From an uncultured Desulfobacter sp. (GTDB taxonomy: Bacteria; Desulfobacterota; Desulfobacteria; Desulfobacterales; Desulfobacteraceae), in assembly GCA_963665095.1 (NCBI GenBank), contig OY762069.1:1600001-1664000 (forward strand): a stretch of DNA of 64,000 nucleotides, given 5' to 3'. Positions 2,091-28,173 of this stretch are shown here, one piece after another; position 1 is the first letter of the stretch; each line of letters opens with the position of its first letter. Both the position numbers and the translations under genes were made by a program. The notes under the pieces were generated by a model. The model saw nothing but the letters and a program-made list of their open reading frames with translations. It had not been told where the DNA came from and searched no databases.

Positions 2091-2107
2091 CAGGCATGGT
2101 TTGTGCC
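2091..2107 (+). promoter_or_regulatory. Candidate sigma54 (-24/-12) promoter of the IS481-like gene
   Basis: CAGGCATGGTTTGTGCC has GG-N10-GC spacing and resembles YTGGCACGN4TTGCW; about 80 bp upstream of a GAGGAG RBS and ATG. Confidence 0.55.
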
Positions 2108-2187
2108 ATCATGGAACTCAACCAGTGAGACTTTTGCAGATTTATCTTTAAAAGCAACCTTGGAAAAGAGACATTTGAGGAGCAGCC

Positions 2188-3114
2188 ATGAAAATACATC
2201 TTCATAAAAATGCCACAACCACACCAGCCCAAAGGGCGTTTATTCAAAATAATCCCCACCTCACCGTGGCCGCTCTTGCGGAAAAAACAGGCGTCAGCAA
2301 AACCACAATCCGGCGGTGGCAGAAACGTATGGATGTATATGACCGTCCACACACCCCGAAACGAATTAAAACCGCCCTGTCTCCCATTGAGGAAATCAAG
2401 ATCACTATGTGCCGCATGGCTTTCAGGGCCGGACTCGATGATCTGAACCAGATCGCTGAAAACTTTTTTAACATCAAGTGCTCACGAGCCAGCTTGAACA
2501 GATGTCTTAAACGATATGAAATATCAAAACTGCCCAACCTGAAATCTTTTGTGCCCTTTGACCTTAAAGACTATACTGGTACCTATTTTTATTATTCCTG
2601 TTTTCACCTGCCTTCATTTTCGGAATCTGAACCGCCAGTGGTATTGCAATGTCTTCTAGACTGCACATTTCGGACGTTTCATGCACAATATTCCACTGCA
2701 CCCAGCAGGTTTTTACTGGATTATATCCAGCATTTCCCTTTGCGGGTTTTAGGCATTATTTACAGTGCCCCCATAATCCTTGGGGATCGGCATCCCGACA
2801 TGGCGTCCTCCCAGAGATCTATCCTGCAATTGTGCCGAACCTTAGGCCTGACATCAAGCTTTATTGACAACCAGCATTCCCAGGCCGAAGACAAACTGAA
2901 CCATACGTTGCAAAAGATGCTTAAAAACAGTGAAAAACAGGATTTAACAAATATCTGGAAAACCAACGACGATTTATTTAAACAGATTCATCAATATAAT
3001 TTTGATCTCCCCCTGGGTTTTTTAAAACAAAAAACCCCTTTTAAAGCTCTGGAATCTCACTATACTCACTTCCCAAACAGCTTCAAATTAAAGCCGGAAG
3101 CGCTTGCTTCTTAA
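2188..3114 (+). CDS. IS481-family transposase-derived HTH protein, DDE triad apparently lost
   Basis: N-terminus HLHKNATTTP...HTH...DRPHTP...LDDL...SRASLNRCLKR and C-terminus YN..LP...L..KTP match IS481-family transposases; expected D/D/E positions read S137, S193 and about N238; intact 308-aa ORF. Confidence 0.75.
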   Translation: MKIHLHKNATTTPAQRAFIQNNPHLTVAALAEKTGVSKTTIRRWQKRMDVYDRPHTPKRIKTALSPIEEIKITMCRMAFRAGLDDLNQIAENFFNIKCSRASLNRCLKRYEISKLPNLKSFVPFDLKDYTGTYFYYSCFHLPSFSESEPPVVLQCLLDCTFRTFHAQYSTAPSRFLLDYIQHFPLRVLGIIYSAPIILGDRHPDMASSQRSILQLCRTLGLTSSFIDNQHSQAEDKLNHTLQKMLKNSEKQDLTNIWKTNDDLFKQIHQYNFDLPLGFLKQKTPFKALESHYTHFPNSFKLKPEALAS

Positions 3115-3126
3115 CCTGTCTTTTCT

Positions 3127-3156
3127 GTTCCCTGCAGAAAATTTTCTGCAGGGAAC
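3127..3156. terminator. Perfect 30-bp palindrome after the IS481-like gene (terminator-like hairpin or protein-binding site)
   Basis: GTTCCCTGCAGAAAA|TTTTCTGCAGGGAAC, 12 bp after the stop; no strong U-tract. Confidence 0.55.
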
Positions 3157-3314
3157 CAGCCTTTAACAATAAATTTTTCCGTATCTTTCTTTTAAAGAAA
3201 ATCTCATATGATTAATTTTAGATAAAATTATAATCCATAAATACATGGATAACCCTTTAAGAACTAATCATATGAAACTTTCTATAATCATATTTTTTCA
3301 CTAGTTTTACCGAC

Positions 3315-3342
3315 TAAAGATTGACTAATCATCACACGATAC
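3315..3342 (+). promoter_or_regulatory. Candidate sigma28 (FliA) promoter of flagellin
   Basis: TAAAGA-N14-CACGATAC; the same pattern and spacing occur upstream of fliD (23256-23283). Confidence 0.6.
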
Positions 3343-3349
3343 CATGGCA

Positions 3350-3514
3350 GAATAACGGATCGATCCAGGCAGATAGCATCTGCCGCAACCCAAACCCTTC
3401 CTGAATATGTCTATTCAGACGGATCTGATCAGACTGTTTAGGAAAGAACTCCTAAAGGTGGACCGGCACTGATGCCGGCACTTAATTTACACCCAAATTC
3501 ACGGAGGAAATCAC
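3350..3514 (+). promoter_or_regulatory. Structured flagellin 5' leader with CsrA-type ACGGA motifs
   Basis: Hairpins GGCAGAT-agc-ATCTGCC, TCAGA-cgga-TCTGA, TTTAGGA-aagaac-TCCTAAA, CCGGCA-ctga-TGCCGG; ACGGA at about 3355, 3419 and 3501 (overlapping the RBS). Confidence 0.55.
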
Positions 3515-5935
3515 ATGAGTTTAAGTATCAATACCAACCTGGCCGCACTCACCGCCCACAGAAACATGGTCGCCACAGACAATGATATGAGCACATCCCT
3601 TACCCGTCTCTCCACAGGGTTGCGGATCAACTCTGCGGCAGACGATGCATCCGGTCTGACCATTGCTGATTCTCTGGCAGCTCAGGCAGACGGCCTGGGC
3701 CAGGGCATTCAGAATGCCAATGACGGCGTTTCAATTGTCCAGACTGCAGATGGCGCTCTTGAAGAGTCTGTAAGCATCGTTAACACAATTAAAACCAAAG
3801 CCATCCAGGCCGCTTCTGACACCCAGACCACGGAAACCCGCTCGGCTATTCAGGAGGACATTGACAAGCTGTTGGAAGAACTGGACAGCATTGCCACCAC
3901 AACTTCCTACAACGGCATGCAGCTTCTTAACGGCACATACACCAACAAGGTCATCCAGACCGGGGCCTCTGCCAATGAAACTGCATCCATCAGCATTGGT
4001 AACAGCGAATCAGATTCCATTGGCCATATCTCCACCGCCACCCTGGAACTCGACGTTGATGACGGCGATGAAGTGCAGCTGACCATTACCTCATCCATCA
4101 CCGGAGAGGATGTGGAACTTGAATCAATCACCATCGAAGCAAATAATGAGGAGGAAAACGGCCTGGGTGCCCTGGCTGACGAAATCAATTCCGTATCATC
4201 TGTCACAGGCGTGTCTGCGGTGGCAGTTGTGGAAACCACTACAGAGTCGGCTATCCAGCAAGGCACCACTGGTTCTGATTTCTCCATCAACGGCGTGACC
4301 ATAGGTGCCGTTAATGTGGAAGACAATGACTCAGATGCATCGTTAGTGACGGCCATTAATGATGCCACCACAGAGACCGGTGTTTCAGCCGCAATCAATG
4401 ATGACGGCACCATTACTCTGACGTCTGAAGACGGTCGCGTCATCAGTGTTACCGGAGATCTGGGCGATGTGTTTGGCGAAGGCGTGACTGCGGATGACCT
4501 GTCAACCATCGGATACATCACTCTGACCCAGGACGGATCCAGCCAGTTTAATATTACAGCGTCTGCCACATCCAGTCTGGATACAAACCTTACAACAAAT
4601 GCGACGTATGAAACTGCGGATGACATGACCCTGGCGAAAGGGTCAACCATACAATCCGGTTCCACCCTTGCTGCAGGAAGTGTGGTTGGTGCTGATATAG
4701 AGGTTATAACGGCTGCTGTTGATGATACCCTCTATGACTATGAACTGGCATCCGGTTCCACCCTTAAAACGGGTTCTGAGTTAGCCCAAGGGACAACCAT
4801 AGGCGGGACTATTACGGTTGATTCAGCAGATGCAACTTTGAATACGGATATGACAATTGAAGCAGGATCGACCCTTGAGTCAGGGAGTATACTTGCCGCA
4901 GGCACTGTCCTGACTGCCACGTTTACGGCCGGCGGCGAAACCTATGAAGCGGGCGATACCTTGACTGCAAAGGTGACTCTTACCTCAGACTTAACTTTAA
5001 CTGAAGACATGACACTGTCAGCTTCCTCAGCGCTTGAGTCAGGGACGGTCCTTACGGCCGGCACGGAACTTGGAGCCGATATAACCCTGGCTGCCACGTT
5101 AACAACAACGGAGGATATGACACTGGAAGCCGGGTCTTCGATCCTGACAGGATCTACCCTTGCCGCGGGGACCACCCTGGGCGATGATACGGTGGTGGCA
5201 TCGACAACAGGTGGAGACATTACAACCACTGAAGAGACTGAAATCTCTGCCGGATCAACCCTATTAACCGGCCTTATTATTGCTGAAGATTCGGAAGTCA
5301 ATGGCACGATTACCATTGCCCAGACAGATTTATCTACCGGAGATTCCGTAACATTGGAGGAAGGCAGCACTCTTGCCGCGGGTACCACCATTGCGGCGGG
5401 TACAACCATTACCACAGATATTAGTGCAGGTTCCATTACTAGTGCAACATCTGATATTGAAGCAGGAACGACGATTACAACAGACATTGTGCTTTCAAGT
5501 GCCGTAACCCTTACTGACTCAATGACGTTGACAGGCACTGGCAATAGAATTGCCGCCGGATCGGAGGTCAATATCTCCAGCGGGGATTCAGGGGATGTGG
5601 TCCTTTCTGACCAGGAGAGTCTGACCCTGTCGGATATCAGCGTCATGACACAGGAGGATGCGGAAATCGCCATAGAAATTGCAGAAGCGGCACTGGCGGA
5701 TCTGGATTCCATACGTGCGTCTCTGGGTTCCACGGAAAATCAGCTGACATCCACCATCTCCAACCTGTCAGTTACCAAAACCAACGTCACGGCGTCTGAA
5801 TCCACTATCCGTGATGTTGACTTTGCAGAAGAGACATCCAACTATGCAAGACTGGCACTTTTGGCCCAGACAAGCTCCTATGCCCTGAGTCAGGCCAATG
5901 CATCAACCTCGAACATTACAAGCCTGCTGCAGTAA
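3515..5935 (+). CDS. fliC: Flagellin, large and acidic with a repetitive hypervariable region
   Basis: N-term SINTN...RLSTGLRINSAADDASGL; C-term RASLGSTENQL...SESTIRDVDFAEE...LLQ; 806 aa. Confidence 0.97.
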   Translation: MSLSINTNLAALTAHRNMVATDNDMSTSLTRLSTGLRINSAADDASGLTIADSLAAQADGLGQGIQNANDGVSIVQTADGALEESVSIVNTIKTKAIQAASDTQTTETRSAIQEDIDKLLEELDSIATTTSYNGMQLLNGTYTNKVIQTGASANETASISIGNSESDSIGHISTATLELDVDDGDEVQLTITSSITGEDVELESITIEANNEEENGLGALADEINSVSSVTGVSAVAVVETTTESAIQQGTTGSDFSINGVTIGAVNVEDNDSDASLVTAINDATTETGVSAAINDDGTITLTSEDGRVISVTGDLGDVFGEGVTADDLSTIGYITLTQDGSSQFNITASATSSLDTNLTTNATYETADDMTLAKGSTIQSGSTLAAGSVVGADIEVITAAVDDTLYDYELASGSTLKTGSELAQGTTIGGTITVDSADATLNTDMTIEAGSTLESGSILAAGTVLTATFTAGGETYEAGDTLTAKVTLTSDLTLTEDMTLSASSALESGTVLTAGTELGADITLAATLTTTEDMTLEAGSSILTGSTLAAGTTLGDDTVVASTTGGDITTTEETEISAGSTLLTGLIIAEDSEVNGTITIAQTDLSTGDSVTLEEGSTLAAGTTIAAGTTITTDISAGSITSATSDIEAGTTITTDIVLSSAVTLTDSMTLTGTGNRIAAGSEVNISSGDSGDVVLSDQESLTLSDISVMTQEDAEIAIEIAEAALADLDSIRASLGSTENQLTSTISNLSVTKTNVTASESTIRDVDFAEETSNYARLALLAQTSSYALSQANASTSNITSLLQ

Positions 5936-12075: not shown

Positions 12076-14028
12076 TTACATATAGTCCACAAGGCTTAGC
12101 CCCATGACAATGGATGTAGAACTCAAAGCCGCTTCATAAACCGTCTGAGTGGAATTGAGCACCATAATGGCCTCCACAGTATCCGCATCCTCCACGGTTG
12201 ACAGTTGTGTTGTCAGGGTGGATTCCGAATCAGAGATGGTGGCTTCGGTAATTGTGGTGGTATCGTAGATGCTTCCAATGGAGGAGATACTGGAGGTAAT
12301 ACTTTCATAGTGATTTTCCAGCCGGGTCATGGCCCGCTGTATGCCGTCCACATCGTTGTTTTCCAAGGCTTCCTTGAGGTCAAAAATGGTATCCCAGATG
12401 CTCCAGGTGGTCTGTTCCCCCTCCACAGGGCCTGATGAGACATCCACACCGTTGAAACCAAGGTCTGAGGAGGCACTGGTGGCAGCATTGGTGCCGCTGG
12501 AAAAAAGCAGATCAAAGGATTCAAGCTGCCTGCCGGTGTCAACATCCTCGCTGATGGTAAAGGTGTTGCTGTTCTCGTCGTATTCAACCGAATAGTTGAC
12601 CCGGTTGCCGTTCTCAGCAGAGGCAGTTTCAAGGGCTTCTTCCACAGCTTCAGCGTAAGATTCCGGATCTGAATAACTGCCGGCCTCTATTACAGCGGTC
12701 AGTTGTACACTGGCATCGCCATCCAGAGTGGTTTCAGTGAAATCAATGGTGTCATTTTCCCCTGCCACCACTGAAAATGTCTCAGCCACTTCAACATCAC
12801 TGCTTACGGGTTCAAGGGTCACTGTTTCCGAATCAAACCCAAGATCTGCCAGAATACTGGCATTTTCATACCCTTCTACAATGTCAAAGGAGATAACAGT
12901 CCCCTCTTCCGGGATGTCGTTTAAATCAATGACAATATCCGTGTCCCCGTCATCATCCACATCAATTTCTATGGTGCTGCCACTGGCTTCAATTTCAGAA
13001 GGAAGACCATATCCGGGATCATTGGAGACTTCCCAGGTACCGTCTTCGGTATATGTCAGGGTCAGCGGATCCGAACCTTCCGGCTCCGGCGTATATTCGG
13101 TTAATGCTGTGGCATTGACAATTTCAATTTCCGCATCTTCAAAATCCTGGCCGGCTGATTCAAAATTTGAAATCCGCACCGTTTCAGTCTGAATAGCCTC
13201 AAAAGTAACGGTAGTTGTGGTATCACTGCCGTCAGTGCCAATGGAAAATGTGTTGGATGCTTCATCATATGCCACTTCATAGACAATACCGTACCCCTGT
13301 TCTTCCGACGCCTCATTCAGGGTATCTTCAACAACGGCAGCCAGTGCTTCCTTACTGTAGGTGCCGCTGGTCACGGTGGCTTCAAGGACAATGATGTTTT
13401 CTTCACCCGTTCCCGGATCTTCAGTGAATATAATCTGGTTATTGGTGGTATCTACAATGATTTCATCTTCATAAAACAGATCACATCCGCAGCAGGCAAG
13501 GGATACATCCGTATTTTCAGAAATACTGATATTTACCGCGTCACTGGTGCCGTTATAGCTGACACTGGTGGGATTATCGTCGTCGTCCGGAGTAAACGGG
13601 GCAGTTTGATTATCATCCCCTGCAAAAACATATCCGCCATAAGCGTCTGAGTTGGCAAGGTCCAGAAGGGTATCGAGGTAGACCAGCATGCTTTCAGCCG
13701 CATCCGTGCGTTCCTGGGTGCTGGATGAGGCATTGGCAAGGGAAGAACACAAAAGCTTCATTTCGGACAACTGATCTGCAATGGAGTCAAGGGCGGTTTC
13801 AGCTGTGGTCAGCACGGTCTGGGCCTGGTCAACATTGGTCTGATACTGGTCCAGGCTTGCCAGGGTGGAGTTGATGCTTAATACCTGGGTCATTCCGGAA
13901 GGATCATCTGATGCCGAATTGATCTTCAGGTTGGTGGAGACGGTCTCATTGGCCTCGCTGAGATCGGAAGTAAGCCTGCCAAGCTGATATGTGGCCTGTT
14001 TATATATGCTTATTGTGGGCACTCTCAT
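12076..14028 (-). CDS. flgL: Flagellar hook-associated protein 3
   Basis: MRV..., KINSASDDPSG, LAN...GGYVFAG, C-term STVEDAD...YEAAL...LSLVDYM; follows flgK. Confidence 0.93.
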   Translation of the reverse strand: MRVPTISIYKQATYQLGRLTSDLSEANETVSTNLKINSASDDPSGMTQVLSINSTLASLDQYQTNVDQAQTVLTTAETALDSIADQLSEMKLLCSSLANASSSTQERTDAAESMLVYLDTLLDLANSDAYGGYVFAGDDNQTAPFTPDDDDNPTSVSYNGTSDAVNISISENTDVSLACCGCDLFYEDEIIVDTTNNQIIFTEDPGTGEENIIVLEATVTSGTYSKEALAAVVEDTLNEASEEQGYGIVYEVAYDEASNTFSIGTDGSDTTTTVTFEAIQTETVRISNFESAGQDFEDAEIEIVNATALTEYTPEPEGSDPLTLTYTEDGTWEVSNDPGYGLPSEIEASGSTIEIDVDDDGDTDIVIDLNDIPEEGTVISFDIVEGYENASILADLGFDSETVTLEPVSSDVEVAETFSVVAGENDTIDFTETTLDGDASVQLTAVIEAGSYSDPESYAEAVEEALETASAENGNRVNYSVEYDENSNTFTISEDVDTGRQLESFDLLFSSGTNAATSASSDLGFNGVDVSSGPVEGEQTTWSIWDTIFDLKEALENNDVDGIQRAMTRLENHYESITSSISSIGSIYDTTTITEATISDSESTLTTQLSTVEDADTVEAIMVLNSTQTVYEAALSSTSIVMGLSLVDYM

Positions 14029-14098
14029 GAAGGATCTCCCCGAAATACTGTAATTACACAGTCCTTTAAAAAGCTGCTTTCAACAATTTTTATATGCG

Positions 14099-17000
14099 TC
14101 ACCGTATGGCCAAAAGGGCCTCAAACATCTCTTCCACAGTTGTCAGCAACTGGGCCGCGGCAAGATACGCCTGCTGCTGGGCTGTCAGGTTGATCATCTC
14201 CTCGTCCAGGGAGACCGCGGAAATAGAATCCCGCTGTGACGTGAGCTGGTAAACCAGCGTTTCTGCATACTCCAGTGCAGAGGAAATACTTGAAGCGGCA
14301 GAACCCACGGACGACACCAAAGAGGCCTGGTAATCGTCAAGGGTTGTCTGGGTTACAGTAACCGAAACCCCCTCCCCTCTGGTATAGGTGTACGCCTTCA
14401 TATCCAGGGTGGTATACCGGGTATCTGACATGGCCAGGGCATTGGTGTTATCACTAGCAGCAAGCGCCCCTGTTTCAGTATCCACCATGCCGGAGGCAAG
14501 ATAATCACCGTCCGACACCACCTCATTCACACTGATGGTGGCAGCATCCGTGCCGGTAAAAAAGGTATTCACACCCAGGGCTGCGGCAAGGCCGCAATCC
14601 CCGTCAACATCCCCTGCAAAGGCATAGGAAAGGTCATCGGCATCCTTTGACTCAAAATCGATACGGATATATCCATCCCCGGTAACTGCCTTGTCAAAGA
14701 TAATTTCAATATCACCGATGCCGTCACCGTCCAGATCAATTTCAAACCCGTCGTCATCCCCGCCCTCAGGAATGATGGTAATGGTGCCGCCGGTGGGATC
14801 ATTGGCCACATACCAGGTGCCGTTGCTGCGTACAAACTGCAGGTCTTCTGCCTCAATTGTAAGGGCATTGTAGTTTAATACCGTAATTTCAAAATTTTCT
14901 TCATCAATGTTGTCAGCCCCTGAACAGGAGACATTTTCTATGGCACAATAATCGTCACTGGTTTGAAAAACGAGTGTGTTGTCCCCGGTAACAGAAGTGG
15001 CCACCCCCCCGGCACTGCGGTTGAATTCCTCGGCAAAGGATTCAAGGGTCCAGTGCCAGTCAGACAGGGTTTCAACGGTATTTCCATCGGCATCAGTTAC
15101 AGCATCACCGTTCTCATCCGTAGTAATATAAAAAACATCTCCTTCCACCAGAGTCCCGGAATCAAAGGTCAGGGTCATGCCGTCCACGGCCACGGTTATC
15201 TGGGAATTTTCATCCTCGGTACCTTCCAGTTCAATGGCGCCTGATCCGGTTTCAGATGTCCACTCAATTACAATAACATCTTCATTATCCGGCAGGGTTC
15301 CTCCGGAAACAACCGTAAACTCATAGGTATCATCGACGCTTGCAGCCGTTCCTGTCACATAAACGTCAAGCAGATCCGCCTGCCCATCCTCATCCGTATT
15401 TATCCGCAGGGTATTTCCAGCCACCAGACTGCCTTCAGAAATGTCAAAGCTTAAGATAGTTTCCCCGTCTTCGGTTATTTCCACCACACCGGATTGGTCC
15501 ACTTCTATGTACCCGGATGTACCGGTACTGTTACCCGCCTCATCCAGCACTTCCCAATAGAGTATGGCAGCATCCCCATAGGTAACAGCCGTGGTTGAGT
15601 TTTTAGTATCGGAATTGGCCACCAGGGTATCATTTTCAGGTGTTTCACTTCCGCTGCCTGTTCCCGTGGTAACACTTAAGGTGCTGTTTCCGAGAGTGGA
15701 GCTGAAATCGGTAATTTCAACGGCATCATCTCCGGTCTTTACAATGGTGATCGAGGTGCCGTTTTTAATAATCTCATAGCTTTCTGAAGGTAACACAGCT
15801 GACAGGGCGTCGTACAAATCCTGGGCGTTGGACGCATCATCCAGGCCGTTAGTTACAGTGTAGGATATTGTGTAGTCATCCACGTCAAAGGAGATAACAG
15901 ACCCGGTATAAAACTGATTATCATCCCCGTCAAAGCCCAGTGTAATCATGCTTGAGCCTGAACCTGAACTGCCTGAGGCGCCGAAAAGTCCGGTGTCAGA
16001 CGTCTGGTCCGAGGAGATTTCCATCCCGGGATCCATCACAATGGTGACACTTCCGGTGATCACGGCAGCTGTATCATACCCGCTGTATGCATCCCCAACA
16101 ATGGCAGAAACACCGGTTTGGGAGCTGGTCTCACACCCGGATAAATATACGGTCAGGTAATCAGTGGAAACAGGGGCAGAATAGATAACCTCCGAGTCAT
16201 ATGGTGTACCAAATGTCAGGATGCCGTCACCTGAATCAGTTTGTGAGCCGGACAAGGGAGTAACTGCAATAGTGGCGTCATCACCTGAATCTGCATCAGC
16301 ATCAAGTATTGACATATAATTACTGGTGGTGCCATGCAAAATAACGGCATCGTTATCTGCATCATACTCTACGCTTAAAAGCCCATTGCCCTCCTCTTCC
16401 ACGGCAGCAGACATGGCATCATAAAACGCCAGTGAGACCGCTGCCTGATCAGAGGTATCAACATCGGTTAAATCCACCTCAACATCAATGTAGGTATCCA
16501 CCCCATCCACAGTTACCATCAGGCTGAAACCGACCGTATCGCCCTGGTTGAAATTCTGAAACGAACTGAGCTGATAGCCGGCCGTGTCCACCACTTCAAA
16601 ATCCTGGATACCAAGGGTGGCGCCTGAGGCGCTTTCAATGGTGGTGCCGTCCACTGCCAGATCCGTGTCCTGCCTGGTTTCATTGATGGATTGAGCTGCA
16701 GCTGCCAGAGCATCTTCAAACTGTTCTTCAAGGGTACCGGCGGAAGAATCCACCGTAAAACTGACGGTTTCTTCCACCCCGTCAACGTATAAAGTAAACT
16801 GAACCACATCACCGTCATCAGCATCACTTATCTTTGAAATGTCAAAATTAAGTTCCGTAGTTGAGGCATAAGCAGTAATACCGTCAATGTCGGACAATTC
16901 ATCTGCAATATCTGCAGCAGAGCGAACCGCGTCTGATCCGTCATCACCGATATCAAGTGTCCAGGTATCATTACCATTGGAAATGGTTAAGGTCTGTTCC

Positions 17001-18286
17001 GACAGTGCAGCATCCAGGGCATCTGCGATATCAGAGGCGCTTGTGGTAATGCTGCCCAGATTGGTTGCGCCGGACTGCACTAAAATCTGTTCTCCCAAAG
17101 TGCCTTCATCAATCACTGTGATTTCATAGGTACTGCTCTCCTCGCCGGTTCCGGAAATATTTGAAATTTCAGAGGTAGAAATGGCCATATCTACCGTTAC
17201 GGTCTGGTATTCGGAATCAGTACCGGAGGCATCCTGGATCACCATGGAAAAATCTTTCGAATAATCTATGTCATCTCCATAGTAAAGACTGGCAAGGGTA
17301 CCGATGTCTCCGGCCTCATATGTTCCTTCAAGGGAACCTGAAAAATAGGTCTGGCCGGCGCCCTGGGAGTGGACATAATTCAGCGTCCAGATTAGGTTTG
17401 ACGCCAGTTCATCAAATTCAGCCATGGTTTCAGGGATAATGACGTCTCTGACTTCCAGCCATCCGGCAATGGCACCACAGGATATGTCATCGGTAATGTC
17501 ATAGGCGTTCCCGGATTTCCCGTTCCAGTATACGCTGCCCTGCTTTACGCTCAAGTCATAGGCAATCCCGTCCTCCACCAGGGGCAGGCCGCTGGTGGTA
17601 ATGAGATAGGTGCCGTCCTCCTTGACTGTGATATCAATGTCAATCAGTTCACCTAAGTCATCCACCAGGGCATTTCGTTCGTCTTCCAGATCATTGGCAT
17701 TGCCACCAGTGCTTTCAGCATTAATAATGGACAGATTCAATGCGGCAATCTGCTCGGCAATGGAGTTGACTTCGGATACGGCGGAAGATATTTCCGTATT
17801 CAGATTCGCAGTCAGTTCGGTTAAATCTTCCTCAATGGCATTGATACGGTCTGCCAGGGCCACACCTGCATCATACACGGCATTTTGCTCAGTTTCCCCG
17901 GAAGGGTTATTGCTCAAATCTTCCCAGGCAGACCAGTAGGCATCCAGCAGGGTGTTCAGACTGTCGTCACTGTCCTCGGAAAACAAATCCTCAATGGTGG
18001 CCATGTAGACCTCTTCCTCTTCCAGGGCCGCCTGGGTGGACAGTTCAGAGGTAAGGGCATTTTCAATGGTCTGGTTGACTGAACTTTCCACTGTTTCAAC
18101 GGTCACGCCGGTACCGTAGATATTTCCCCCGGGAGAGACCGTGGAGGTGGTGGACAAGACTGCCGTCTGGATGCTGTAATCATCATTATCCGCATTGGCA
18201 ATATTCTGGCTGGTCACGCTGATGGCGGACTGGTAGGCGGAAATGGCATTTGCCGCCGTGTTTAATATGGCATTCAGGCTGCTCAT
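14099..18286 (-). CDS. flgK: Flagellar hook-associated protein 1 (1395 aa)
   Basis: VTSQNIANA...YS.Q, NDLEDERNAL, C-term QRDSISAVSLDEEMINL...AYLAAAQLL. Confidence 0.94.
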   Translation of the reverse strand: MSSLNAILNTAANAISAYQSAISVTSQNIANADNDDYSIQTAVLSTTSTVSPGGNIYGTGVTVETVESSVNQTIENALTSELSTQAALEEEEVYMATIEDLFSEDSDDSLNTLLDAYWSAWEDLSNNPSGETEQNAVYDAGVALADRINAIEEDLTELTANLNTEISSAVSEVNSIAEQIAALNLSIINAESTGGNANDLEDERNALVDDLGELIDIDITVKEDGTYLITTSGLPLVEDGIAYDLSVKQGSVYWNGKSGNAYDITDDISCGAIAGWLEVRDVIIPETMAEFDELASNLIWTLNYVHSQGAGQTYFSGSLEGTYEAGDIGTLASLYYGDDIDYSKDFSMVIQDASGTDSEYQTVTVDMAISTSEISNISGTGEESSTYEITVIDEGTLGEQILVQSGATNLGSITTSASDIADALDAALSEQTLTISNGNDTWTLDIGDDGSDAVRSAADIADELSDIDGITAYASTTELNFDISKISDADDGDVVQFTLYVDGVEETVSFTVDSSAGTLEEQFEDALAAAAQSINETRQDTDLAVDGTTIESASGATLGIQDFEVVDTAGYQLSSFQNFNQGDTVGFSLMVTVDGVDTYIDVEVDLTDVDTSDQAAVSLAFYDAMSAAVEEEGNGLLSVEYDADNDAVILHGTTSNYMSILDADADSGDDATIAVTPLSGSQTDSGDGILTFGTPYDSEVIYSAPVSTDYLTVYLSGCETSSQTGVSAIVGDAYSGYDTAAVITGSVTIVMDPGMEISSDQTSDTGLFGASGSSGSGSSMITLGFDGDDNQFYTGSVISFDVDDYTISYTVTNGLDDASNAQDLYDALSAVLPSESYEIIKNGTSITIVKTGDDAVEITDFSSTLGNSTLSVTTGTGSGSETPENDTLVANSDTKNSTTAVTYGDAAILYWEVLDEAGNSTGTSGYIEVDQSGVVEITEDGETILSFDISEGSLVAGNTLRINTDEDGQADLLDVYVTGTAASVDDTYEFTVVSGGTLPDNEDVIVIEWTSETGSGAIELEGTEDENSQITVAVDGMTLTFDSGTLVEGDVFYITTDENGDAVTDADGNTVETLSDWHWTLESFAEEFNRSAGGVATSVTGDNTLVFQTSDDYCAIENVSCSGADNIDEENFEITVLNYNALTIEAEDLQFVRSNGTWYVANDPTGGTITIIPEGGDDDGFEIDLDGDGIGDIEIIFDKAVTGDGYIRIDFESKDADDLSYAFAGDVDGDCGLAAALGVNTFFTGTDAATISVNEVVSDGDYLASGMVDTETGALAASDNTNALAMSDTRYTTLDMKAYTYTRGEGVSVTVTQTTLDDYQASLVSSVGSAASSISSALEYAETLVYQLTSQRDSISAVSLDEEMINLTAQQQAYLAAAQLLTTVEEMFEALLAIR

Positions 18287-18759
18287 GGCGTGAGCGTTCT
18301 TCCCTGGTGAACATAGCTGGATGCCGCGTGCAGCCGGTCCAGAACACCTTTAAACAACACCCCGTTGCGGCGGGCTGAATTCATCAGCTCCCTGTGCCGG
18401 TTTTCAAGATCCCGGGCCAGCGGGAAAAGAAGCTCCTTTTGTTCAGATGTCAGATTGGGAATCATTTTAACCCGGTTGACCAGGGTCCTTGGCATGGTTG
18501 AAGGTATTTCCCTGCCGGCCATGGCCCGGAGCTGCTCACTGATGGCGCGCACCAGATGTTCAAACCGGTTGACGCAGTTTCTTTTTCTTAGGATGAGCTG
18601 GTTCAGTGATTTGGGGTCATAGGCCATACCAGCCACATATTCAGCATCCAGAATGCGGTTCAGCTCCTTATGCAGGGCCCGGGTCCTGACCATTTTTCTT
18701 TCAAGCACAGCCACCTGGTCTTCTGCTTCCATGTCCGTATAAATTAAGGGAAGTATCAT
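18283..18759 (-). CDS. FlgN-like flagellar export chaperone
   Basis: 158-aa helical protein immediately upstream of and overlapping flgK; ELMNSARRNGVL resembles the FlgN C-terminal pattern; mainly a synteny call. Confidence 0.65.
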   Translation of the reverse strand: MILPLIYTDMEAEDQVAVLERKMVRTRALHKELNRILDAEYVAGMAYDPKSLNQLILRKRNCVNRFEHLVRAISEQLRAMAGREIPSTMPRTLVNRVKMIPNLTSEQKELLFPLARDLENRHRELMNSARRNGVLFKGVLDRLHAASSYVHQGRTLTP

Positions 18760-18771
18760 GCTTTTATTCTC

Positions 18772-21504
18772 CTATCGTTTCATGGATATCACCGTGCTCA
18801 TCATCTCATCCACGGTACTGATAATTTTGGCATTGGCTTCATAGGCATTCTGCAGTTCGATCATCTCAACAAACTCCTCGGAAATATCCACGTTGGATGA
18901 TTCAAGGCAGTAGGACGATATGGTGCCAAGGCCGTTTTCGCCGGCTTTATTGGTAATGGCAGCCCCACTTTCCGTTGTAGCGGCATACAGGTTTGAGCCC
19001 ACGCTTTCAAGGCCGTTGGGGTTGTTAAAATCAGCCAGAGCCACTAGAAAAAGGGCAATTTCCTGACCATTGGAGTAGGTGCCGGTGACAAGACCGTCTG
19101 AATCCACCTCAACCCCTGTCAGGTCACCGGATGCATAACCGTCTGCATCCTGATAGGTGGTGGAGGAGGAGGTGGCATACTGTGTGGACGACAGGGAGTC
19201 ATTTATCCAGTTGTTACCGTCCCAGCTGGAACCGATATTAAATGAAATATCGGTTTCGGTTGAACCGTAACTGCCGCCAAGAAAATCAACTGTAAATTGC
19301 AGGTAGCCGGTATCTTCGGCTTCGTCCATTGTCACTTCACGCCAGGCGGTGGATCCCTCGATATCAAAGGTAATGGTGCTTGAGTCTTCATATGGATCCG
19401 TGTCTGTGCCGCTTTTAAGTTTCTCTTCAAAGGTAAAAACAATATCATCTTTGTCGTCTTCATTGCCTGAACCATCCAGATCAATGGAGATATAGGTGGC
19501 ATCACCTGACAGGGTGGCATCACTGTATTCAGACGGCGGTACATCCGGATCCACATCAAAGGTGAATGTTTCACCGCCTGAAAGGGTGGTTGTGGCACCG
19601 GAAGTAACCGCAATAGTTACATCGGCAGAGGAATCGCCATCAAAATCTATGGAGACACTGTTGTCTGTTGTAGTCAGAATTTCAGCGTCTGCGTATTCTG
19701 CAGGCGGTGTCGGATCAATGGAAAAGGAGATAGTCTGGCCGCCACCGGTTGTCATGGCCTCATCCAGGGAGTATTCAATGGTGGAGGCACCGGCTGAATC
19801 AGACGAATAGACAGTGACCTGAACCCCGTTCTCATCGCTTTCAGAAGCAACAATGGAAACCGTAAGGCCCCCGCTGTCAGTGACGGACCATGACGTCCCG
19901 TCCCATGTCAGCTCAATATCACTGGTGGTGGCAATGGCACCTTCTGATCCCGACTCAATAATGGATAATTCCGGTTCGCTGTCAATTTCAAGACTATAGG
20001 ATTCACCAGATATATCATCCTCTTTCAGGGCCTCATTCCAGTCCCAGTCCGTACCGTCAAACCTCAGGCTGATATCTTCAGACACCATGGTCATGACATC
20101 GTAGTCTGTGATAGTGATATTGCCTGAATCTGTGCTGATTGCTGCGTATGTAGTGGTCATATCGCTGATGAGCGTACCGTCTTCTGCAGCTTGTTCAGGA
20201 TTGCTCCAGGCCCAGGTCTCTGTATACGGATTCCAGACAAGGGAAAGGTCTTCGGCATCAGAGGTCATAACACCGGCATCATTAATTGACACAGTGGTGT
20301 TATTATAAGCATCTCCTGTGTAAACGGCATTTTCAATATCCTGGACATGAAGGTCTGTGGGGTCATTAATATCAAAGGTGATTGTGTCCCCGGCCATGGC
20401 ATATTCGTCCAGGGAAATTTTCAAGTCTGCCTCTTCTTCGCCGCCGCTGGAGTCAGGATCAAGTACAATGTAAACTGTTGTTTCATCTGAATAGATGATC
20501 TCAGCATTGCTGTACGCATCCGGAAGGGTGGATTCATCCAGCACCCAGTTGTCCCCGTCAAAGGTCATGGAAATGCCGTAGCCATCCACCAGCATAGCTT
20601 CGGAATCTTCGATCTCAAAATGGATATCATCAACGGCATTATTTCCTGATGCCTCCACATTGCCGATCTGCCCGGTCAGTTCCTCCATGGTCATGGAGAC
20701 AATTTCCCCGGAGCTTTCAGAAAAAGTGATGGTTCCCCTGGCCAAAAGCCCTGCCGAATCCGTATCAGTCACAAGACTGCGGCTGTCCTCATCCGGATCA
20801 CAGCAGATAATATACTCCCATTCAGTGTCTGATTTTTTATCATAGTAAACAGTTACTTCATGGGCAGATCCCAGGGAGTCGTACACGGTAACAACAGTCT
20901 GGTATTCGTAACCGTCAGAGTCCACGGTTGTCTCTTCCTCTTCATCATACTCAAAAAGATTGGACAGTACTGTGGCAAGCGATTCCGCATCTGAATCCAG
21001 ATTGGTAATCACGATGATTTCTTCCGTATCGTCCGGAGGAGACGTGAACTCAGTCAGAACAAGATCTGTTATGGCACCGTATTCCTCGCCGGTGTCCCCA
21101 TCCACATACCATCCCTGGAGAATATATCCGCTGGAGTTCACCAGTGCCCCTGATTCATCAAATGAAAAATTACCGGCTCTGGTATAGAAAGTCTCTTCAG
21201 ATCCTTCTGCAGAGACCACAAAAAAGCCGTCGCCGCCAATGGCCAGATCAGTGGAGTTGCTGGTGGTTTCAAGTGAGCCGTCCGTAAATACCTGTGACAC
21301 TGTATCAATGGACATACCAAGACCCACCTGGGAAGCGCCTGCCTGGGTGCCAATGGTCTGGTACAAGGTATCTGCAAAGGTGGAAGTCCCCTTTTTAAAC
21401 CCCACCGTATTAATATTGGATATATTGTTACTGGTTACCTGAAGGGCGCTGCCAGTGTTGGTCAGACCGCTGGTGCCTGCGTAAAGGGAACTGGTTAATG
21501 ACAT
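18772..21504 (-). CDS. flgE: Flagellar hook protein (910 aa)
   Basis: SLYAGTSGL...SNNISNINTVGFK, DLAIGGDGFF, YTRAGNF, LESSNVDISEEFVEMI..QNAYEANAK. Confidence 0.96.
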   Translation of the reverse strand: MSLTSSLYAGTSGLTNTGSALQVTSNNISNINTVGFKKGTSTFADTLYQTIGTQAGASQVGLGMSIDTVSQVFTDGSLETTSNSTDLAIGGDGFFVVSAEGSEETFYTRAGNFSFDESGALVNSSGYILQGWYVDGDTGEEYGAITDLVLTEFTSPPDDTEEIIVITNLDSDAESLATVLSNLFEYDEEEETTVDSDGYEYQTVVTVYDSLGSAHEVTVYYDKKSDTEWEYIICCDPDEDSRSLVTDTDSAGLLARGTITFSESSGEIVSMTMEELTGQIGNVEASGNNAVDDIHFEIEDSEAMLVDGYGISMTFDGDNWVLDESTLPDAYSNAEIIYSDETTVYIVLDPDSSGGEEEADLKISLDEYAMAGDTITFDINDPTDLHVQDIENAVYTGDAYNNTTVSINDAGVMTSDAEDLSLVWNPYTETWAWSNPEQAAEDGTLISDMTTTYAAISTDSGNITITDYDVMTMVSEDISLRFDGTDWDWNEALKEDDISGESYSLEIDSEPELSIIESGSEGAIATTSDIELTWDGTSWSVTDSGGLTVSIVASESDENGVQVTVYSSDSAGASTIEYSLDEAMTTGGGQTISFSIDPTPPAEYADAEILTTTDNSVSIDFDGDSSADVTIAVTSGATTTLSGGETFTFDVDPDVPPSEYSDATLSGDATYISIDLDGSGNEDDKDDIVFTFEEKLKSGTDTDPYEDSSTITFDIEGSTAWREVTMDEAEDTGYLQFTVDFLGGSYGSTETDISFNIGSSWDGNNWINDSLSSTQYATSSSTTYQDADGYASGDLTGVEVDSDGLVTGTYSNGQEIALFLVALADFNNPNGLESVGSNLYAATTESGAAITNKAGENGLGTISSYCLESSNVDISEEFVEMIELQNAYEANAKIISTVDEMMSTVISMKR

Positions 21505-21586
21505 GGGGTTCTCCTTAACATGGAAAAAATTTTATACGTTGAGCTGCGGCCGGCATAAAAATGTACCGGCTCATTTACAGCATTTT

Positions 21587-22720
21587 TTATTCAACAGTGG
21601 TTATAGTTGATACGGAGATCAGACGGCCGGTATCTCCAATGACAAGGTATTGGGTACCATCCACATAGCTGACGGCAGTAACTTCGCCGCTGATGGGGGT
21701 GGTGGCAGACCCGGAATCCGTTGTTACGGTATAGTAGTAAAGCCCGTCCGATGCCGAGTAACCCGTTGAGGAAAGCCCGTTCCAGGTGACTTCATTGGTC
21801 CCTGTGGTAGTGTCATCGGCATCCACTTCTATGGTGGCCACCTCCTCATCACTGGCATTGTAGATCGTGATGGTGACATCTGATGTGGTTTCCAGATAAT
21901 AGGTCAGGGCATCCCCCTGAACCTCGCTGTCCTCTACCTGGATAATGGGATAATTGGATGATACGGTCATACCTAAGTACTCAAGAATGGAGGTGGACTC
22001 ATCTGAACTTGATGAAGATGAAGCGGATGTCACGGTGGTAACATCTTCCGGATCCACCAGTACCCCGCTGACAACCAGATATCCTTTGCCGTCCTGGTAA
22101 CTCACCGCATCCACGGTGCCGGTAAGGTAACTTTCCACCTCATCATACCCGTCCCCGTAATTGGCCATGACCACATAGGAGTATTCACCGTCGTCCAGGC
22201 TGTTCCCCTCGTCGTCCGTGCCGTCCCAGGAGATAAGATATGATCCGGCCTCCACCTCTCCCTGGGACAGTGTGGCCACCTGGGAGCCGTCTTCGTCATA
22301 CACGTAGACAATCACTTCAGCCGGTTCATCCACCTCATAAAAACCTGAGGTGACAGAACCGTCATCAATGGTCATGGACGTAACCGATGCCGTGACTGTC
22401 AGCCCCACATAGGAATTGGCATCAATATCATCTTCAGAAGCTTCCAACTCTTCTGTCATTTCATCGAGCTTATCATTGACATTGATGAGCTGTTCCACCT
22501 GAGTGAACTGGGCCAGCTGATCGGTAAAATCATCTGTATCAGCCGGGTCAAGCGGGTTCTGGTTTTCAAGCTGGGCCAACAGAAGGGTTAAAAAATCCTC
22601 TGTTCCCAGATCATAGGTCCCTTCACTGGTAGTTGACGTATCTTCAGCATCATAAGCTTCGTAGCTTGAAATCAGGGACGAAAGAATGCTGTTTCCTACA
22701 GATGAAGTTGAATCGGACAT
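21587..22720 (-). CDS. flgD: Flagellar hook capping protein with duplicated Ig/Tudor-like module
   Basis: FLTLLLAQLENQNPLDP...QLAQFTQVEQ; two FlgD-Ig-like repeats (WDGTDDEG...DGEY and WNG...DGLY). Confidence 0.94.
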   Translation of the reverse strand: MSDSTSSVGNSILSSLISSYEAYDAEDTSTTSEGTYDLGTEDFLTLLLAQLENQNPLDPADTDDFTDQLAQFTQVEQLINVNDKLDEMTEELEASEDDIDANSYVGLTVTASVTSMTIDDGSVTSGFYEVDEPAEVIVYVYDEDGSQVATLSQGEVEAGSYLISWDGTDDEGNSLDDGEYSYVVMANYGDGYDEVESYLTGTVDAVSYQDGKGYLVVSGVLVDPEDVTTVTSASSSSSSDESTSILEYLGMTVSSNYPIIQVEDSEVQGDALTYYLETTSDVTITIYNASDEEVATIEVDADDTTTGTNEVTWNGLSSTGYSASDGLYYYTVTTDSGSATTPISGEVTAVSYVDGTQYLVIGDTGRLISVSTITTVE

Positions 22721-23255
22721 TTCCAGCTCCTTATGCTGTCGATTGTGTTATTGTCTTTAAGATCGTTTTAAACCTGTCCCAAGACATCTTTTCCTGCAGG
22801 TATTTAAACCAAAATAAATGCCGAAAGCCTTTAATGGCAGGGATTGCCAAAGCAAAAACATCAGATGTATCAAAAGATTATTTTCTAAACTTTTGCACCA
22901 CCACCGGACTGTGAATCTTCTTATTTCTTCACGAACTTTGGATCAAAACTGATAGTAAATGGCGGTTGAAAATCAGAACAGACTCGAATTAATCATATGA
23001 AACAAAAACTTAAAAAGAATGTCTTTGCCCTAACTAAATTCGGATGCTTCCTCTTCTTCAAAAGGAAAATTTTACCCATCCTTCTGATTTTATTAATTTA
23101 CCAGTCATATACAACTAAAGGGCGGATTTAAAATTTTTATTTGAATGCAAATCTCACTTATTTAGTTTTTTCGTTTTTCACCAATGATGGAATTATTGAA
23201 ATTTATATTGCGATTAATCAGTTGAGACATAGCAATTTTGTGATGTTTCCGCCTT

Positions 23256-23283
23256 TAAAGAATGGGGCGTTTACAGGCGATAC
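23256..23283 (+). promoter_or_regulatory. Candidate sigma28 promoter of fliD
   Basis: TAAAGA-N14-GGCGATAC, matching the motif upstream of fliC. Confidence 0.65.
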
Positions 23284-23351
23284 ATGCTCCAGGACACCCG
23301 GCAGAATTTTCCTGCTCCGGGTTTTTAGTAAAGCGTTAAGGAGAATAGACC

Positions 23352-25412
23352 ATGGCAACCGGCACCATTACCTCACTTGGACTGGGCTCTGACCTTGACC
23401 TGCAAAGTCTTCTGGACACCCAGCAGGAAGCGGATGAGACAATTAACGACCTCAAACTGGATGAAATTGAGGAACTTGAAGCGGAAGAAGAAGCGCTGAC
23501 ATCCGTTCAAAGTGAGCTTCTGGCCATGAAAGCCAGTGCCCTGAATCTGTCTTTATCCTCCACCTATCTCTACAGAGATGTCAACTCTTCGGATGAAGAT
23601 GTGGCTACGGCCACAGTGCTTGATGGAACAGATACCGGAACCCACACCGTTGCAACAACGCGCCTGGCCTCCAACAGTTCGTATATGTCCGACGGATTTG
23701 AATCTGAATCTTCCACTGTGTATGTTCCCACCACGCAACAGTCCACTGACAGCTATGAAAGTGTTACAGATACCATACTGGAAGATGGAGACACCCTGAC
23801 CATCTCATATGGGGATGAAGATGGCCCCACCACTTTCACCATCACTGCTGCCGGGGACATGAGTGTTGAGGAACTGGCGGAGGCGATTAACACGGATGCG
23901 TCCAATGTGGACGATGACGGCAATACACTGGTAACGGCCAGCACCTACCTGGATGATGATGGCAGTATTCATATCCAGATTGATTCAACCTCGGAAGGGA
24001 CCGGAGAAGACAACCGCGTAGAAGTATCAGGGTCAGATGGTGTCACCTCCTTTACTGCCCCCACCCTGGAACTTTCTTTCAGCGTTGGAGACGGTGAGGT
24101 GTTTACCATCTCAGTACCTGCGGAAACAACCCTCGAAGATCTTGCCGAGCGGATTAATGATGCGGATGATAATCCCGGCGTTACAGCCACAGTTATTTAC
24201 ACAGGCACCGGTGACAATCCGTATCAGCTGGTTTTAGAGGCCGATGACAGTGGTGAAGACAACCGGATTACCATTGTCAGCAATGTGGAAGCATTAGGCC
24301 TGACCGAGTCAAACGGTGACGGCTACACCATGACAGGGGACGAATCCATCTCCTTTGAATCCGCTGTTACCATCGATGACACAAACAATACTATTGTATT
24401 TGAAGAGGTGGATGAAGATGGGAAGAGTGTCTCTGTGACAGCCCGGATTGATGCAGGCACCTATGATACCGCAGAAGAGCTGGCTGAAGCGGTTGAGTTA
24501 GCCCTTGAGAACGCCTCCAAAGAAGATGGCAATAATACGGACTACTCAGTTGAAATCGACTCTGAAACCGGATTAATGACCATTTCAGAAGCAGGCACCC
24601 TGGAAAGCGTGACCATTAACTGGGAAGATGACACCTGTACTGCAGCCGACACTTTAGGCTTTACTGAAACCAAAACCATCACACCCATGGACTCCTCACT
24701 GAATGCCATGGTCACCGTTGACGGCATTACCTATCAGCGCCAGGAGAACACAGGCATTGATGACATTATTGACGGTGTGACCCTGAAACTGTACTCCACA
24801 GGAAACACCACCATTACCGTGGAAAACGATACAGAAGATATTGTGACAGAAATCACAAGCCTTGTGGAGACTTACAACACACTGCTTGCTGAGATCGATG
24901 AAAATGATGACTATGACGATGATGAGGAAACCTACGGAACCCTGGCCCAAAGTTCCACTATCAGAACCCTGAAAACCTCATTGCAGGACCTGATCACCTC
25001 GGTGGTGGATACAGGCGGAGACATTACAAGTCTTCTGGATATTGGTATTGAGATTGATGAGGATGACGGCACGCTCACTCTGGATGAAGAAACCCTTGCA
25101 CAAGTATTGGAAGATAACTATGACGAGGTTGTCGCCCTGCTCAAAGGCACAGACGATGAAGAGGGTTTAGGCGATGTTCTAAATGATGCATTCGGTTCCT
25201 ACGCCATCTCTGACGGATATATTCAGAATGAAATTGATGCCATTGAAGACAAAATTGACCGCCTGGAAGAGGACTATGAGGAAGAAGTAGAGCGTATTGA
25301 AAAAAAATATGAAATTATGGCGGCAGAATACACAGAGCTGGATTCCTACCTTTCCGAACTTGCCAATATTGAAAGCTATATTGATACCATGATGTCTACT
25401 GATGATGACTAA
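23352..25412 (+). CDS. fliD: Flagellar filament cap protein
   Basis: ITSLGLGSDLDL, VDGITYQRQEN.IDDIIDGVTLKL, coiled-coil C-terminus; 686 aa. Confidence 0.93.
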   Translation: MATGTITSLGLGSDLDLQSLLDTQQEADETINDLKLDEIEELEAEEEALTSVQSELLAMKASALNLSLSSTYLYRDVNSSDEDVATATVLDGTDTGTHTVATTRLASNSSYMSDGFESESSTVYVPTTQQSTDSYESVTDTILEDGDTLTISYGDEDGPTTFTITAAGDMSVEELAEAINTDASNVDDDGNTLVTASTYLDDDGSIHIQIDSTSEGTGEDNRVEVSGSDGVTSFTAPTLELSFSVGDGEVFTISVPAETTLEDLAERINDADDNPGVTATVIYTGTGDNPYQLVLEADDSGEDNRITIVSNVEALGLTESNGDGYTMTGDESISFESAVTIDDTNNTIVFEEVDEDGKSVSVTARIDAGTYDTAEELAEAVELALENASKEDGNNTDYSVEIDSETGLMTISEAGTLESVTINWEDDTCTAADTLGFTETKTITPMDSSLNAMVTVDGITYQRQENTGIDDIIDGVTLKLYSTGNTTITVENDTEDIVTEITSLVETYNTLLAEIDENDDYDDDEETYGTLAQSSTIRTLKTSLQDLITSVVDTGGDITSLLDIGIEIDEDDGTLTLDEETLAQVLEDNYDEVVALLKGTDDEEGLGDVLNDAFGSYAISDGYIQNEIDAIEDKIDRLEEDYEEEVERIEKKYEIMAAEYTELDSYLSELANIESYIDTMMSTDDD

Positions 25413-26445: not shown

Positions 26446-26992
26446 TGGCCACTTTAAAATCCCCCACCCGTGGCCGGGTCAAAATCCCCCGGCGACAGAA
26501 TATTAAGATCTAAGTTATGCTCTCAATATTTTTCATTTTCTCCTTTTTTCATCCCTCTTTATTATTGGGCAGCCGGGAGAGCCGCTGGGCGGCCTCTTTG
26601 AGCCGGTAACTCTTCCCTTCAAATTTCAGCAGATGACCATGGTGAAGCAACCGGTCCAGTATGGCCGATGATGCTGCATTGTCTTTTAGAAGCAGACCCC
26701 AGTCTTCAATGGATCGATTGGAAGTGATCACGGTACTTTTCCTTCTGGCATATCGGTTAATGATGACATCCAGCAGGTAGTCAGCTGCATCTTTAGGCAT
26801 TTTCTTCCGGAGGAACAAATCATCAATAACCAAAAGATCCGCCTGTGTAAACAGTTTGAAGACCTTTTTTCGATTTTGAATCTGCTCAGCCTCAACCATG
26901 TCTTCAAAAAACACATGGGCTTCCCGGTAAACCGTTTTCTGGAACAATTGGACGGACGCATGGGCGATGGTCTTGGCAATATGGCTCTTCCC
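26446..26992 (-). mobile_element. IS21-family element remnant A (terminal repeats plus 3' istB)
   Basis: Tandem sub-terminal repeats TGGCC..AAAATCCCCC at about 26446-26490, downstream of an istB fragment; exact end uncertain. Confidence 0.75.
26549..26992 (-). pseudogene. istB: IstB ATPase C-terminal fragment beginning inside Walker A
   Basis: GKSHIA...DLLVIDD...STVITSN...W...AILDRLLHH...GKSYRLKE; N-terminal part missing. Confidence 0.9.
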
Positions 26993-27019
26993 ATTATGTA
27001 AAGCTTTACATAATGGGAA
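26988..27019. repeat. Perfect 32-bp palindrome joining two istB fragments
   Basis: TTCCCATTATGTAAAG|CTTTACATAATGGGAA. Confidence 0.95.
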
Positions 27020-27425
27020 AACACATATTGCGACTGCTTTAGGTAACCAGGCCTGCCTGAAAAACCATACAGTTCTGTTCTCTTCTGCCATTGATATCGT
27101 CAACAATCTGATGGCAGCCCAGAAGGCGGGTCAGTTAAAGCAGGAACTGAGAAAATACCTCAAGCCAACTTTGCTGATCATGGATGAACTGGGCTACCTG
27201 CCTATTGACAAGATTGGGGCAGACCTGTTGTTCCAAATTATCAGTCAGCGCTATGAGCAAGGAGCCATCATAATAATCACAAACCGGGTGTTCAAAGATT
27301 GGCCGGAGATCTTCAACAATGACATGACATTAACATCAGCTTTGCTGGACAGGCTTCTTCACCACACCGAGCCTGTGGTCATTGAGGGTAAGAGTTTTAG
27401 AATGAAAGATGTGACGGAAGAATAA
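27015..27425 (+). pseudogene. istB: Second, distinct IstB C-terminal fragment beginning inside Walker A
   Basis: GKTHIATALG...LLIMDELGYLP...LLFQIISQRYE...ALLDRLLHH...GKSFR. Confidence 0.9.
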
Positions 27426-28093: not shown

Positions 28094-28168
28094 TGGAGGC
28101 GGCTCCCGGATTTGAACCGGGGAATAACGGCTTTGCAGGCCGTCGCCTTACCCCTTGGCTAAGCCGCC
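28094..28168 (-). tRNA. tRNA-Cys (GCA)
   Basis: GGCGGCTTAGCCAAG...CTGCAAA anticodon loop...GGTTCAAATCC...CCA. Confidence 0.97.
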
Positions 28169-28173
28169 TTTTG

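Follow-up and report, generated by a model that had tools for sequence, protein, structure and literature searches.

X, a protein encoded just upstream of the flagellin gene fliC, descends from an IS481 transposase and is, judging from sequence, probably a sequence-specific regulator of the hook, filament and cap genes of the flagellum in Desulfobacteraceae (fliC, fliD and the operon flgD-E-N-K-L). That it is an IS481-derived domesticated protein and no longer an IS481 element is well supported. The first-pass annotation of the window (the whole stretch of 64,000 nucleotides analysed here) had proposed this domestication, and the single copy of the gene, its synteny with fliC, a dN/dS <1 and the lack of intact IS ends all speak for it. 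X is under purifying selection, immobile and held at a conserved locus; there is no multi-copy spread, since its genome carries one copy plus one paralog of 36% identity.

X is a DDE-dead IS481-derived protein according to its NCBIfam match, its alignment and its structure model. It is encoded on the plus strand by an intact 308-aa open reading frame (window 2188-3114) with no internal stops or frameshifts, in agreement with the first reading. The collinearity with IS481 transposases reported then also holds: the NCBIfam model NF033577 covers residues 23-287 (E 1.1e-16; 61 bits, below the cut-off of 224), the homology is full-length and the fold is RNase H-like. An N-terminal helical/HTH region (aa 1-113) precedes a dead RNase H-like core (aa 129-300) with S137, S193 and N238 in the catalytic columns. 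The alignment comprised 96 family proteins, namely 95 of the 102 homolog matches (the seven shorter than 290 aa were left out) plus L061, and 29 distinct IS481 proteins of 300-335 aa. The three residues that the annotation had placed at the DDE positions were recovered there one for one. The first Asp is present in none of the 96 family members, the second likewise in none (Glu in 7), and the Glu in 11; not one of them keeps two or more of the three residues, against all three in 28 of the 29 IS proteins. An Asp one column past the second catalytic position is found in 75/96 members, and X has Ala194 there. Median identity to the IS proteins is 44% over residues 1-113 and 17% over residues 129-300. 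The AlphaFold model of X (pLDDT 85), a check that the first reading had suggested, finds IstA (8b4h, E 6e-9) as its best Foldseek match, followed by retroviral integrases; the triad loss is confirmed by the alignment. Searched by sequence, the PDB returned no significant match to X, and ESM Atlas returned unnamed HTH/XRE clusters and IS481/rve clusters, with no named regulator among them. A homodimer prediction scored 0.00, which counts neither for nor against.

Of 161 genomes of the bacterial family searched by profile, 29 have members of the X family: a single gene in 26, and the maximum of two in the other three. The names of the homologs point to Desulfobacteraceae. The genome of the window, searched with X, yielded the one paralog and one chance match. 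We call the close orthologs of X clade A. They lie directly upstream of fliC in 21/22 loci, with variable neighbours on the other side, and their frame is intact in 21/22. The single-copy orthologs syntenic with fliC that the annotation proposed to look for therefore exist. The median dN/dS among 21 orthologs is 0.22 (range 0.15-0.48) and lies below 1 in 82/82 usable pairs, these being the pairs out of 210 with unsaturated dS; dS is saturated when the window gene is compared with six of its orthologs. The purifying selection foreseen is stronger in the N-terminus (0.12, 97 pairs) than in the dead core (0.26, 82 pairs). As far as its sequence tells, X has lost catalysis and its N-terminal DNA-binding region is kept under selection.

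In a quick tree of 80 proteins (all our trees are of this kind), a long branch (SH-aLRT 100) separates the 34 family members from all the others. The same tree holds 15 further full-length proteins without the triad, scattered among active IS proteins, so repeated loss is likely. Such triad-less full-length IS481 derivatives include P0138, P0141, P0142, P0222, P0133, P0128, P0118, P0140 and P0166, among others, and the first four group together. Frameshifted family genes were seen as L055 / L244 and L057 / L237; at L055 the adjacent fliC, flgL and flgK are frameshifted as well, which points either to an error of assembly or to a module that is decaying as a whole.

The gene downstream of X encodes a type-A flagellin of 806 aa (fliC, 3515-5935, plus strand). 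It is preceded by a promoter (3315-3341, plus strand) that is conserved in 20/20 linked promoters and that we take to be of the sigma28 type on the established consensus. A de novo motif search in the 150 nt upstream of this promoter in 20 distinct X-linked fliC promoters returned as its top motif a single 19-mer, AAATCTCAATTGATTGTTT, at positions -116 to -119 in 20/20 of them. This motif, the box, scores at least 20 bits in 20/20 linked promoters in leave-one-out scoring, and exceeds 12 bits in 4/26 unlinked flagellin promoters, with one more at exactly 12.0. Among genomes lacking X, flagellin promoters carry boxes in G030 (15.8 bits) and G002 (12.0 bits). The exact consensus occurs in 16/161 genomes. 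Of these, 14 belong to the 29 that have the X family, and the other two (G104 and G129) are genomes in which X was not found; the reversed control occurs in two genomes. In the window, the distal box 1 (3199-3217, plus strand, 24.6 bits) and the inverted, proximal box 2 (3262-3280, minus strand, 22.2 bits), both part of the training set, are 63 bp apart, and box 2 ends 34 bp before the -35 element. An inverted proximal copy 63-65 bp nearer the promoter scores >8 bits in 9/20 loci only, so the pairing is not universal. The fliC 5' leader (3345-3514) contains conserved stem-forming blocks and several GGA-containing motifs, and CsrA-type control of it is possible.

The box resembles the ends of active IS481 elements. 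A scan of genome contigs supplied true IS481 references, among them a multi-copy Tepidimonas element (L060 and its copies) with TGT...ACA ends and 6-bp target duplications, and 31 distinct IS ends gave the core GTCCCGGANGATT. The likeness of the box matrix to this core was reached by 1/3000 column shuffles when the proximal fliC sites were used, by 124/3000 with the distal sites, which matched best in reverse orientation, and by 67/3000 with all fliC sites. One IS end, L102, differs from box 1 at a single one of 13 core bases. A matrix trained on the IS ends was conversely applied directly downstream of X. At the window locus its two best matches there are the two fliC boxes, but it beat shuffles (p <=0.05) in only 3/30 loci, so the motif has drifted.

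The family also retains boxes where transposon ends once lay. We scored the IS-end positions of ten divergent family members not adjoining type-A fliC. The left position, 34-49 nt before the start codon, carries a box in 8/10 of these paralogs, and the right position (+946 to +985, at the end of the ORF) carries an inverted box in 8/10; random windows pass the 7-bit threshold in 0.7% and 1.25% of cases. TGT is found at the IS tip position in 0/16 of these end sites. The likeness of the matrix built from the paralog sites to the IS core was reached by 9/1500 shuffles, and two more metagenome loci, both with broken frames, also have both end sites. Clade A itself has a left flanking site >12 bits in 0/22 loci, its former-end sites having been lost. 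Neither 1891-2190 nor 3051-3300 contains an IS-type TGT tip followed by a core, as judged by a regular-expression search, so that the absence of TGT...ACA termini on both flanks of X, claimed earlier, stands; no target-site duplication is seen either, as no ends remain to flank. By these comparisons of motifs, the box is derived from the transposon-end core and is conserved both at flagellar promoters and where the paralogs once had their ends. The paralog in the genome of the window (L040, G000:C1:4041151-4042205; 337 aa, 36% identity) lies between two inward-facing boxes, and its neighbours are trkH-like, phospholipase A1 and sbcCD genes. Another divergent member, L232 (G011:C1:4376000-4395999), is convergent with flgL in a second hook cluster, one that lacks fliC; a box precedes the start of L232, and another (15.8 bits) lies upstream of fliD.

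Boxes are also found between flgD and fliD. In the window, the hook/junction operon, a predicted target, runs on the minus strand from 22720 to 12079 and comprises flgD (21587-22720), flgE (18772-21504), flgN (18283-18759), flgK (14099-18286) and flgL (12079-14028), the last assigned from its position and its resemblance to orthologs that carry a Flagellin_N domain. The cap gene fliD (23352-25412, plus strand) encodes 686 aa. The matrix trained on fliC promoters was applied out of sample to flgD-fliD spacers with a cut-off of 10 bits, and in the window it found four sites: flgD-proximal (22865-22883, plus strand, 18.9 bits), flgD-distal (22987-23005, minus strand, 12.8 bits), fliD-distal (23149-23167, plus strand, 19.9 bits) and fliD-proximal (23212-23230, minus strand, 18.6 bits). 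The last two form an inverted pair, and this pair and the fliC pair, the two inverted pairs of this genome, share the same 63-bp spacing. Downstream of the boxes lie a sigma28-type promoter of fliD (23256-23282, plus strand) and, in a conserved alignment block, a putative sigma54-like flgD promoter whose -12 element is a variant (22809-22822, minus strand). Upstream of the core promoters of fliC, fliD and flgD, the boxes end at distances of 34, 25 and 42 bp, respectively, and none lies on them. Mid-spacer there is also a conserved motif other than the box (23064-23076), probably the site of another regulator; similar sequences occur upstream of the sigma54 flagellin promoters of the second flagellar set described below, and the motif is probably the site of a flagellar sigma54 activator.

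In 16 flgD-fliD spacers with type-A fliD, 2-4 sites each exceed 10 bits, at four recurring positions and 53 in total, against a mean of 2.6 and a maximum of 8 in dinucleotide shuffles of the same spacers. The 14 other fliD regions gave one match of 10.1 bits, and 11 other flgD loci no site >10 bits. At least two sites precede type-A flgD in 17/17 genomes with clade-A X; since the genomes are related, these counts are not independent. Two genomes without X, G002 and G004, retain a type-A flgD (75-79% identity) together with its sigma54-like core, and have no box there (best 6.4 and -0.1 bits). They probably represent one loss event, with the upstream DNA restructured rather than point-decayed, and because they keep the flgD operon, X is not indispensable. 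Conversely, in G008 the type-A fliC and fliD have been replaced, and X and both flgD boxes are retained; this replacement accounts for the one clade-A locus without fliC.

Across the whole genome the matrix has 36 matches >15 bits, compared with 8-49 for 11 column-shuffled matrices, and two inverted pairs, compared with 0-3. As these counts lie within those of the shuffles, it is conservation that carries the case for the boxes, and single genome-wide matches were rejected as members of the regulon. The best match in the genome (G000:C1:2854608, 28.2 bits) is intergenic, 153 bp before a gene that by eye encodes a PAS/LuxR-like regulator.

The genome has two complete hook/junction/filament/cap sets, 45-59% identical, one in the window (12079-25412) and one at 5.32-5.36 Mb (G000:C1:5321822-5363238); many genomes of the same genus have the window-type set only. 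Nine genomes combine clade-A X with a second long flagellin, and in five of them one second-set promoter carries a box. It overlaps the sigma28 -10 element in G009, abuts the sigma54 -24 element in G142, and lies about 30 bp upstream in G000, G035 and G143, which share one orthologous promoter and the geometry of module A. Cross-repression of the second set was considered and set aside, as the sign cannot be read from the placement of these boxes; it remains a lead.

Around X itself, the GAGGAG ribosome binding site (2177-2182, plus strand), the GG-N10-GC motif (2093-2106, plus strand) and the hairpin past the stop codon (3128-3155) are all found where the first-pass annotation had put them; the hairpin is not called a terminator because it lacks a U-tract. 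The motif is a real sigma54-type promoter of X, restricted to some lineages: it occurs in 9/22 clade-A loci, each time with a palindrome some 87 bp farther upstream, and the other 13 have neither. In the window this palindrome (2006-2033), which co-occurs with the motif, is a probable enhancer site for a sigma54 activator of X. Divergent from X lies a minus-strand operon (344-1892) for a zf-HC2 anti-sigma protein (1461-1892), an unassigned protein of 189 aa (901-1470) and an ECF sigma factor (344-901), which adjoins X in 4/20 loci. Four of the nine loci with the sigma54 motif are shown beside this operon and a sigma54 activator in which the AAA+ domain begins around residue 24. In the window's genome the activator (G000:C1:1599014-1600052) lies just before the window, downstream of the ECF operon, with its N-terminal sensor region almost absent; it is a candidate activator of X via the palindrome. 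The first annotation had named both fliC and the ECF operon as possible targets. fliC holds up as a likely target, and fliD and the flgD operon join it. The ECF operon was rejected for want of a conserved box, the sole one nearby being a weak match in the X leader (2115-2133, minus strand, 16.3 bits) that is unconserved at orthologous loci and may be due to chance.

If X acts on these promoters, it would bind the box through its N-terminal domain. It may further bridge inverted boxes 63-64 bp (six helical turns) apart, much as a transposase pairs transposon ends, although this is the weaker inference. The paralogs probably control their own promoters, and clade A would control fliC, fliD and the flgD operon. 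As to the sign, given binding, we slightly favour an activator or architectural co-activator, which boxes ending 34, 25 and 42 bp upstream of the core promoters would suit. A repressor is a lesser yet substantial prospect, and a repressor or modulator would also explain the retention of the operon without X in G002 and G004; action in both senses seems improbable. More tentatively, with a chance that we put somewhat short of even, the whole flagellar regulon may derive from the transposon's own pair of protein and ends, X looping phased inverted cores to switch hook, filament and cap genes on, and the subfamily being a recurrent source of regulators. In such a history the dead transposase would have kept its specificity for the terminal-repeat core, with paralogs still lying between tip-less ends. 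Copies of the core would then have been installed as phased inverted pairs at fliC, fliD and flgD, where X would loop them in the manner of a transpososome, touching the second flagellin set where two exist. PfaR, discussed below, would be another case from the same IS481 subfamily.

Other explanations have to be weighed against the reading of X as a flagellar regulator that recognises the box. X might be a domesticated DNA-binding protein while another host factor reads the boxes, its association with fliC being linkage. The motif is AT-rich and quasi-palindromic like the sites of many regulators, the IS-trained matrix reaches significance in few of the spacers (3/30), and the X-loss test amounts to about one event. 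Yet at seven or more unrelated loci the fliC-trained matrix singles out both of the former IS ends that flank X paralogs, and boxes are gone with X in G002 and G004 and kept with it in G008, so we consider a separate reader improbable. A recombination or mobilisation system, in which an active IS481-type transposase acting in trans would cut box pairs and X would recruit or block it (with transposition immunity or phase variation, rather than transcription control, as the outcome), could account for boxes arranged in inward-facing pairs like the ends of miniature IS elements and for the highly variable context upstream of X-fliC, and the genome does hold multi-copy elements that match NF033577 below the cut-off. 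We regard it as very unlikely. Against it, the paralog end sites have lost the TGT tip throughout, the boxes keep fixed positions relative to promoters, and a search of the genome with X brings up only the paralog and the chance match.

Control of flagellin through a bound RNA, in the manner of TldR, was a further suggestion of the first reading. It would fit the parallel between X-fliC and the fliC-tldR loci described in the accessible part of PMC10705468, and the conserved blocks of the fliC leader. The proposal is not borne out and we give it very little credence: X has an IS481 DDE fold and not that of TnpB/RuvC, Rfam returned no significant family and a single chance-level match, and the conservation is explained by a DNA motif, so that the evidence favours readout of DNA sequence. 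Lastly, the patchy distribution of the family (29/161 genomes) and the frameshifted or truncated genes at genome loci L055 and L057 and metagenome loci L296 and L297 might suggest a decaying insertion sequence. Selection and synteny exclude this, with a frame intact in 21/22 clade-A loci, dN/dS <1 in every usable pair, one long-branch clade and at most two genes per genome, and we attach next to no weight to it.

X and the IS481 elements of the Tepidimonas subfamily are collinear end to end, share about 32% identity (44% in the N-terminus) and the same class of fold, and the terminal-repeat core of these elements resembles the box of the X clade; X differs in having no DDE triad, TGT tips or target duplication and in being a single-copy gene fixed beside flagellar genes. 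IS481 features have been described in PMC10045372. Remote homologs of X from Shewanella and Psychromonas belong to the PfaR family: X is 41% identical over 119 aa of the N-terminus to P0173, two relatives of which (P0269 and P0308) bear the name PfaR, and the members P0173, P0210, P0246, P0269, P0308 and P0314 have the IS481-type N-terminus in common with X. PfaR matches NF033577 at E 5e-18 and lacks the triad, as X does, but it aligns to the model in part, whereas X does so over its full length. It is known from Shewanella, Colwellia and Psychromonas, in a different phylum, as the regulator of pfaABCD, the omega-3 fatty-acid operon. Its target pathway differs from that of X, and the X family neighbours flagellar or unrelated genes. 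The title of a 2023 article by Wei et al. is said to call PfaR a positive regulator. According to the accessible text of PMC4744452, PfaR models on MuA, lacks catalytic residues and probably acts as a regulator; pfaRABCD has been placed under FabR (PMC5343134, in part), and in the available portion of a preprint (bioRxiv 2020.01.28.924217) deletion of pfaR gave no EPA phenotype. In those parts of the literature that were accessible we found no link between a PfaR site and IS ends. On an N-terminal tree X and PfaR form separate supported clades, and their joint monophyly is not rejected (AU p 0.67). PfaR is a homologous DDE-dead precedent that the first reading overlooked, and it is a homolog, not necessarily an ortholog, of X.

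TldR also is a nuclease-dead transposon protein recruited beside fliC with loss of the transposon ends. It is an unrelated protein, built on a TnpB/RuvC scaffold, RNA-guided and partly prophage-borne, as described in the portion of PMC10705468 available to us, whereas X derives from a DDE transposase and is predicted to recognise DNA directly, with hook and cap genes among its predicted targets as well. In eukaryotes, transcription factors that originate from transposases are well known, and some of them bind sites derived from terminal inverted repeats. FHY3/FAR1, a DDE-type transposase turned transcription factor (PMC6000157, in part), come from another transposon superfamily and another domain of life than X. 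The bacterial examples that we found are the RNA-guided TldR and PfaR, whose transposase origin is mentioned in passing. In the literature within reach, which left out most subscription papers, we found no description of the X family, of its box or of a DDE-derived flagellar regulator.

The X family appears to display, in sequence, a path from transposon to regulator: active IS elements with full ends, dead paralogs with tip-less ends, and a clade with its sites transferred to a host regulon. With exact coordinates for the predicted operators, the question of whether bacterial regulons are built from transposon ends becomes testable. If X is a flagellar regulator, marine sulfate reducers would have a layer of flagellar control not described before, and an IS481-end-like operator for PfaR would be worth seeking. 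The specific IS481 origin of the PfaR family deserves attention as well.

Some further features of the region may be recorded. The flagellar proteins are large and acidic-looking (FlgK 1395 aa, FlgE 910 aa, FliC 806 aa). At 26549-27425 of the window, two overlapping IstB-like ORFs, recognised by eye on opposite strands, are probably IS21 remnants, and shortly after them, at about 28100-28250, lies a tRNA-like sequence.
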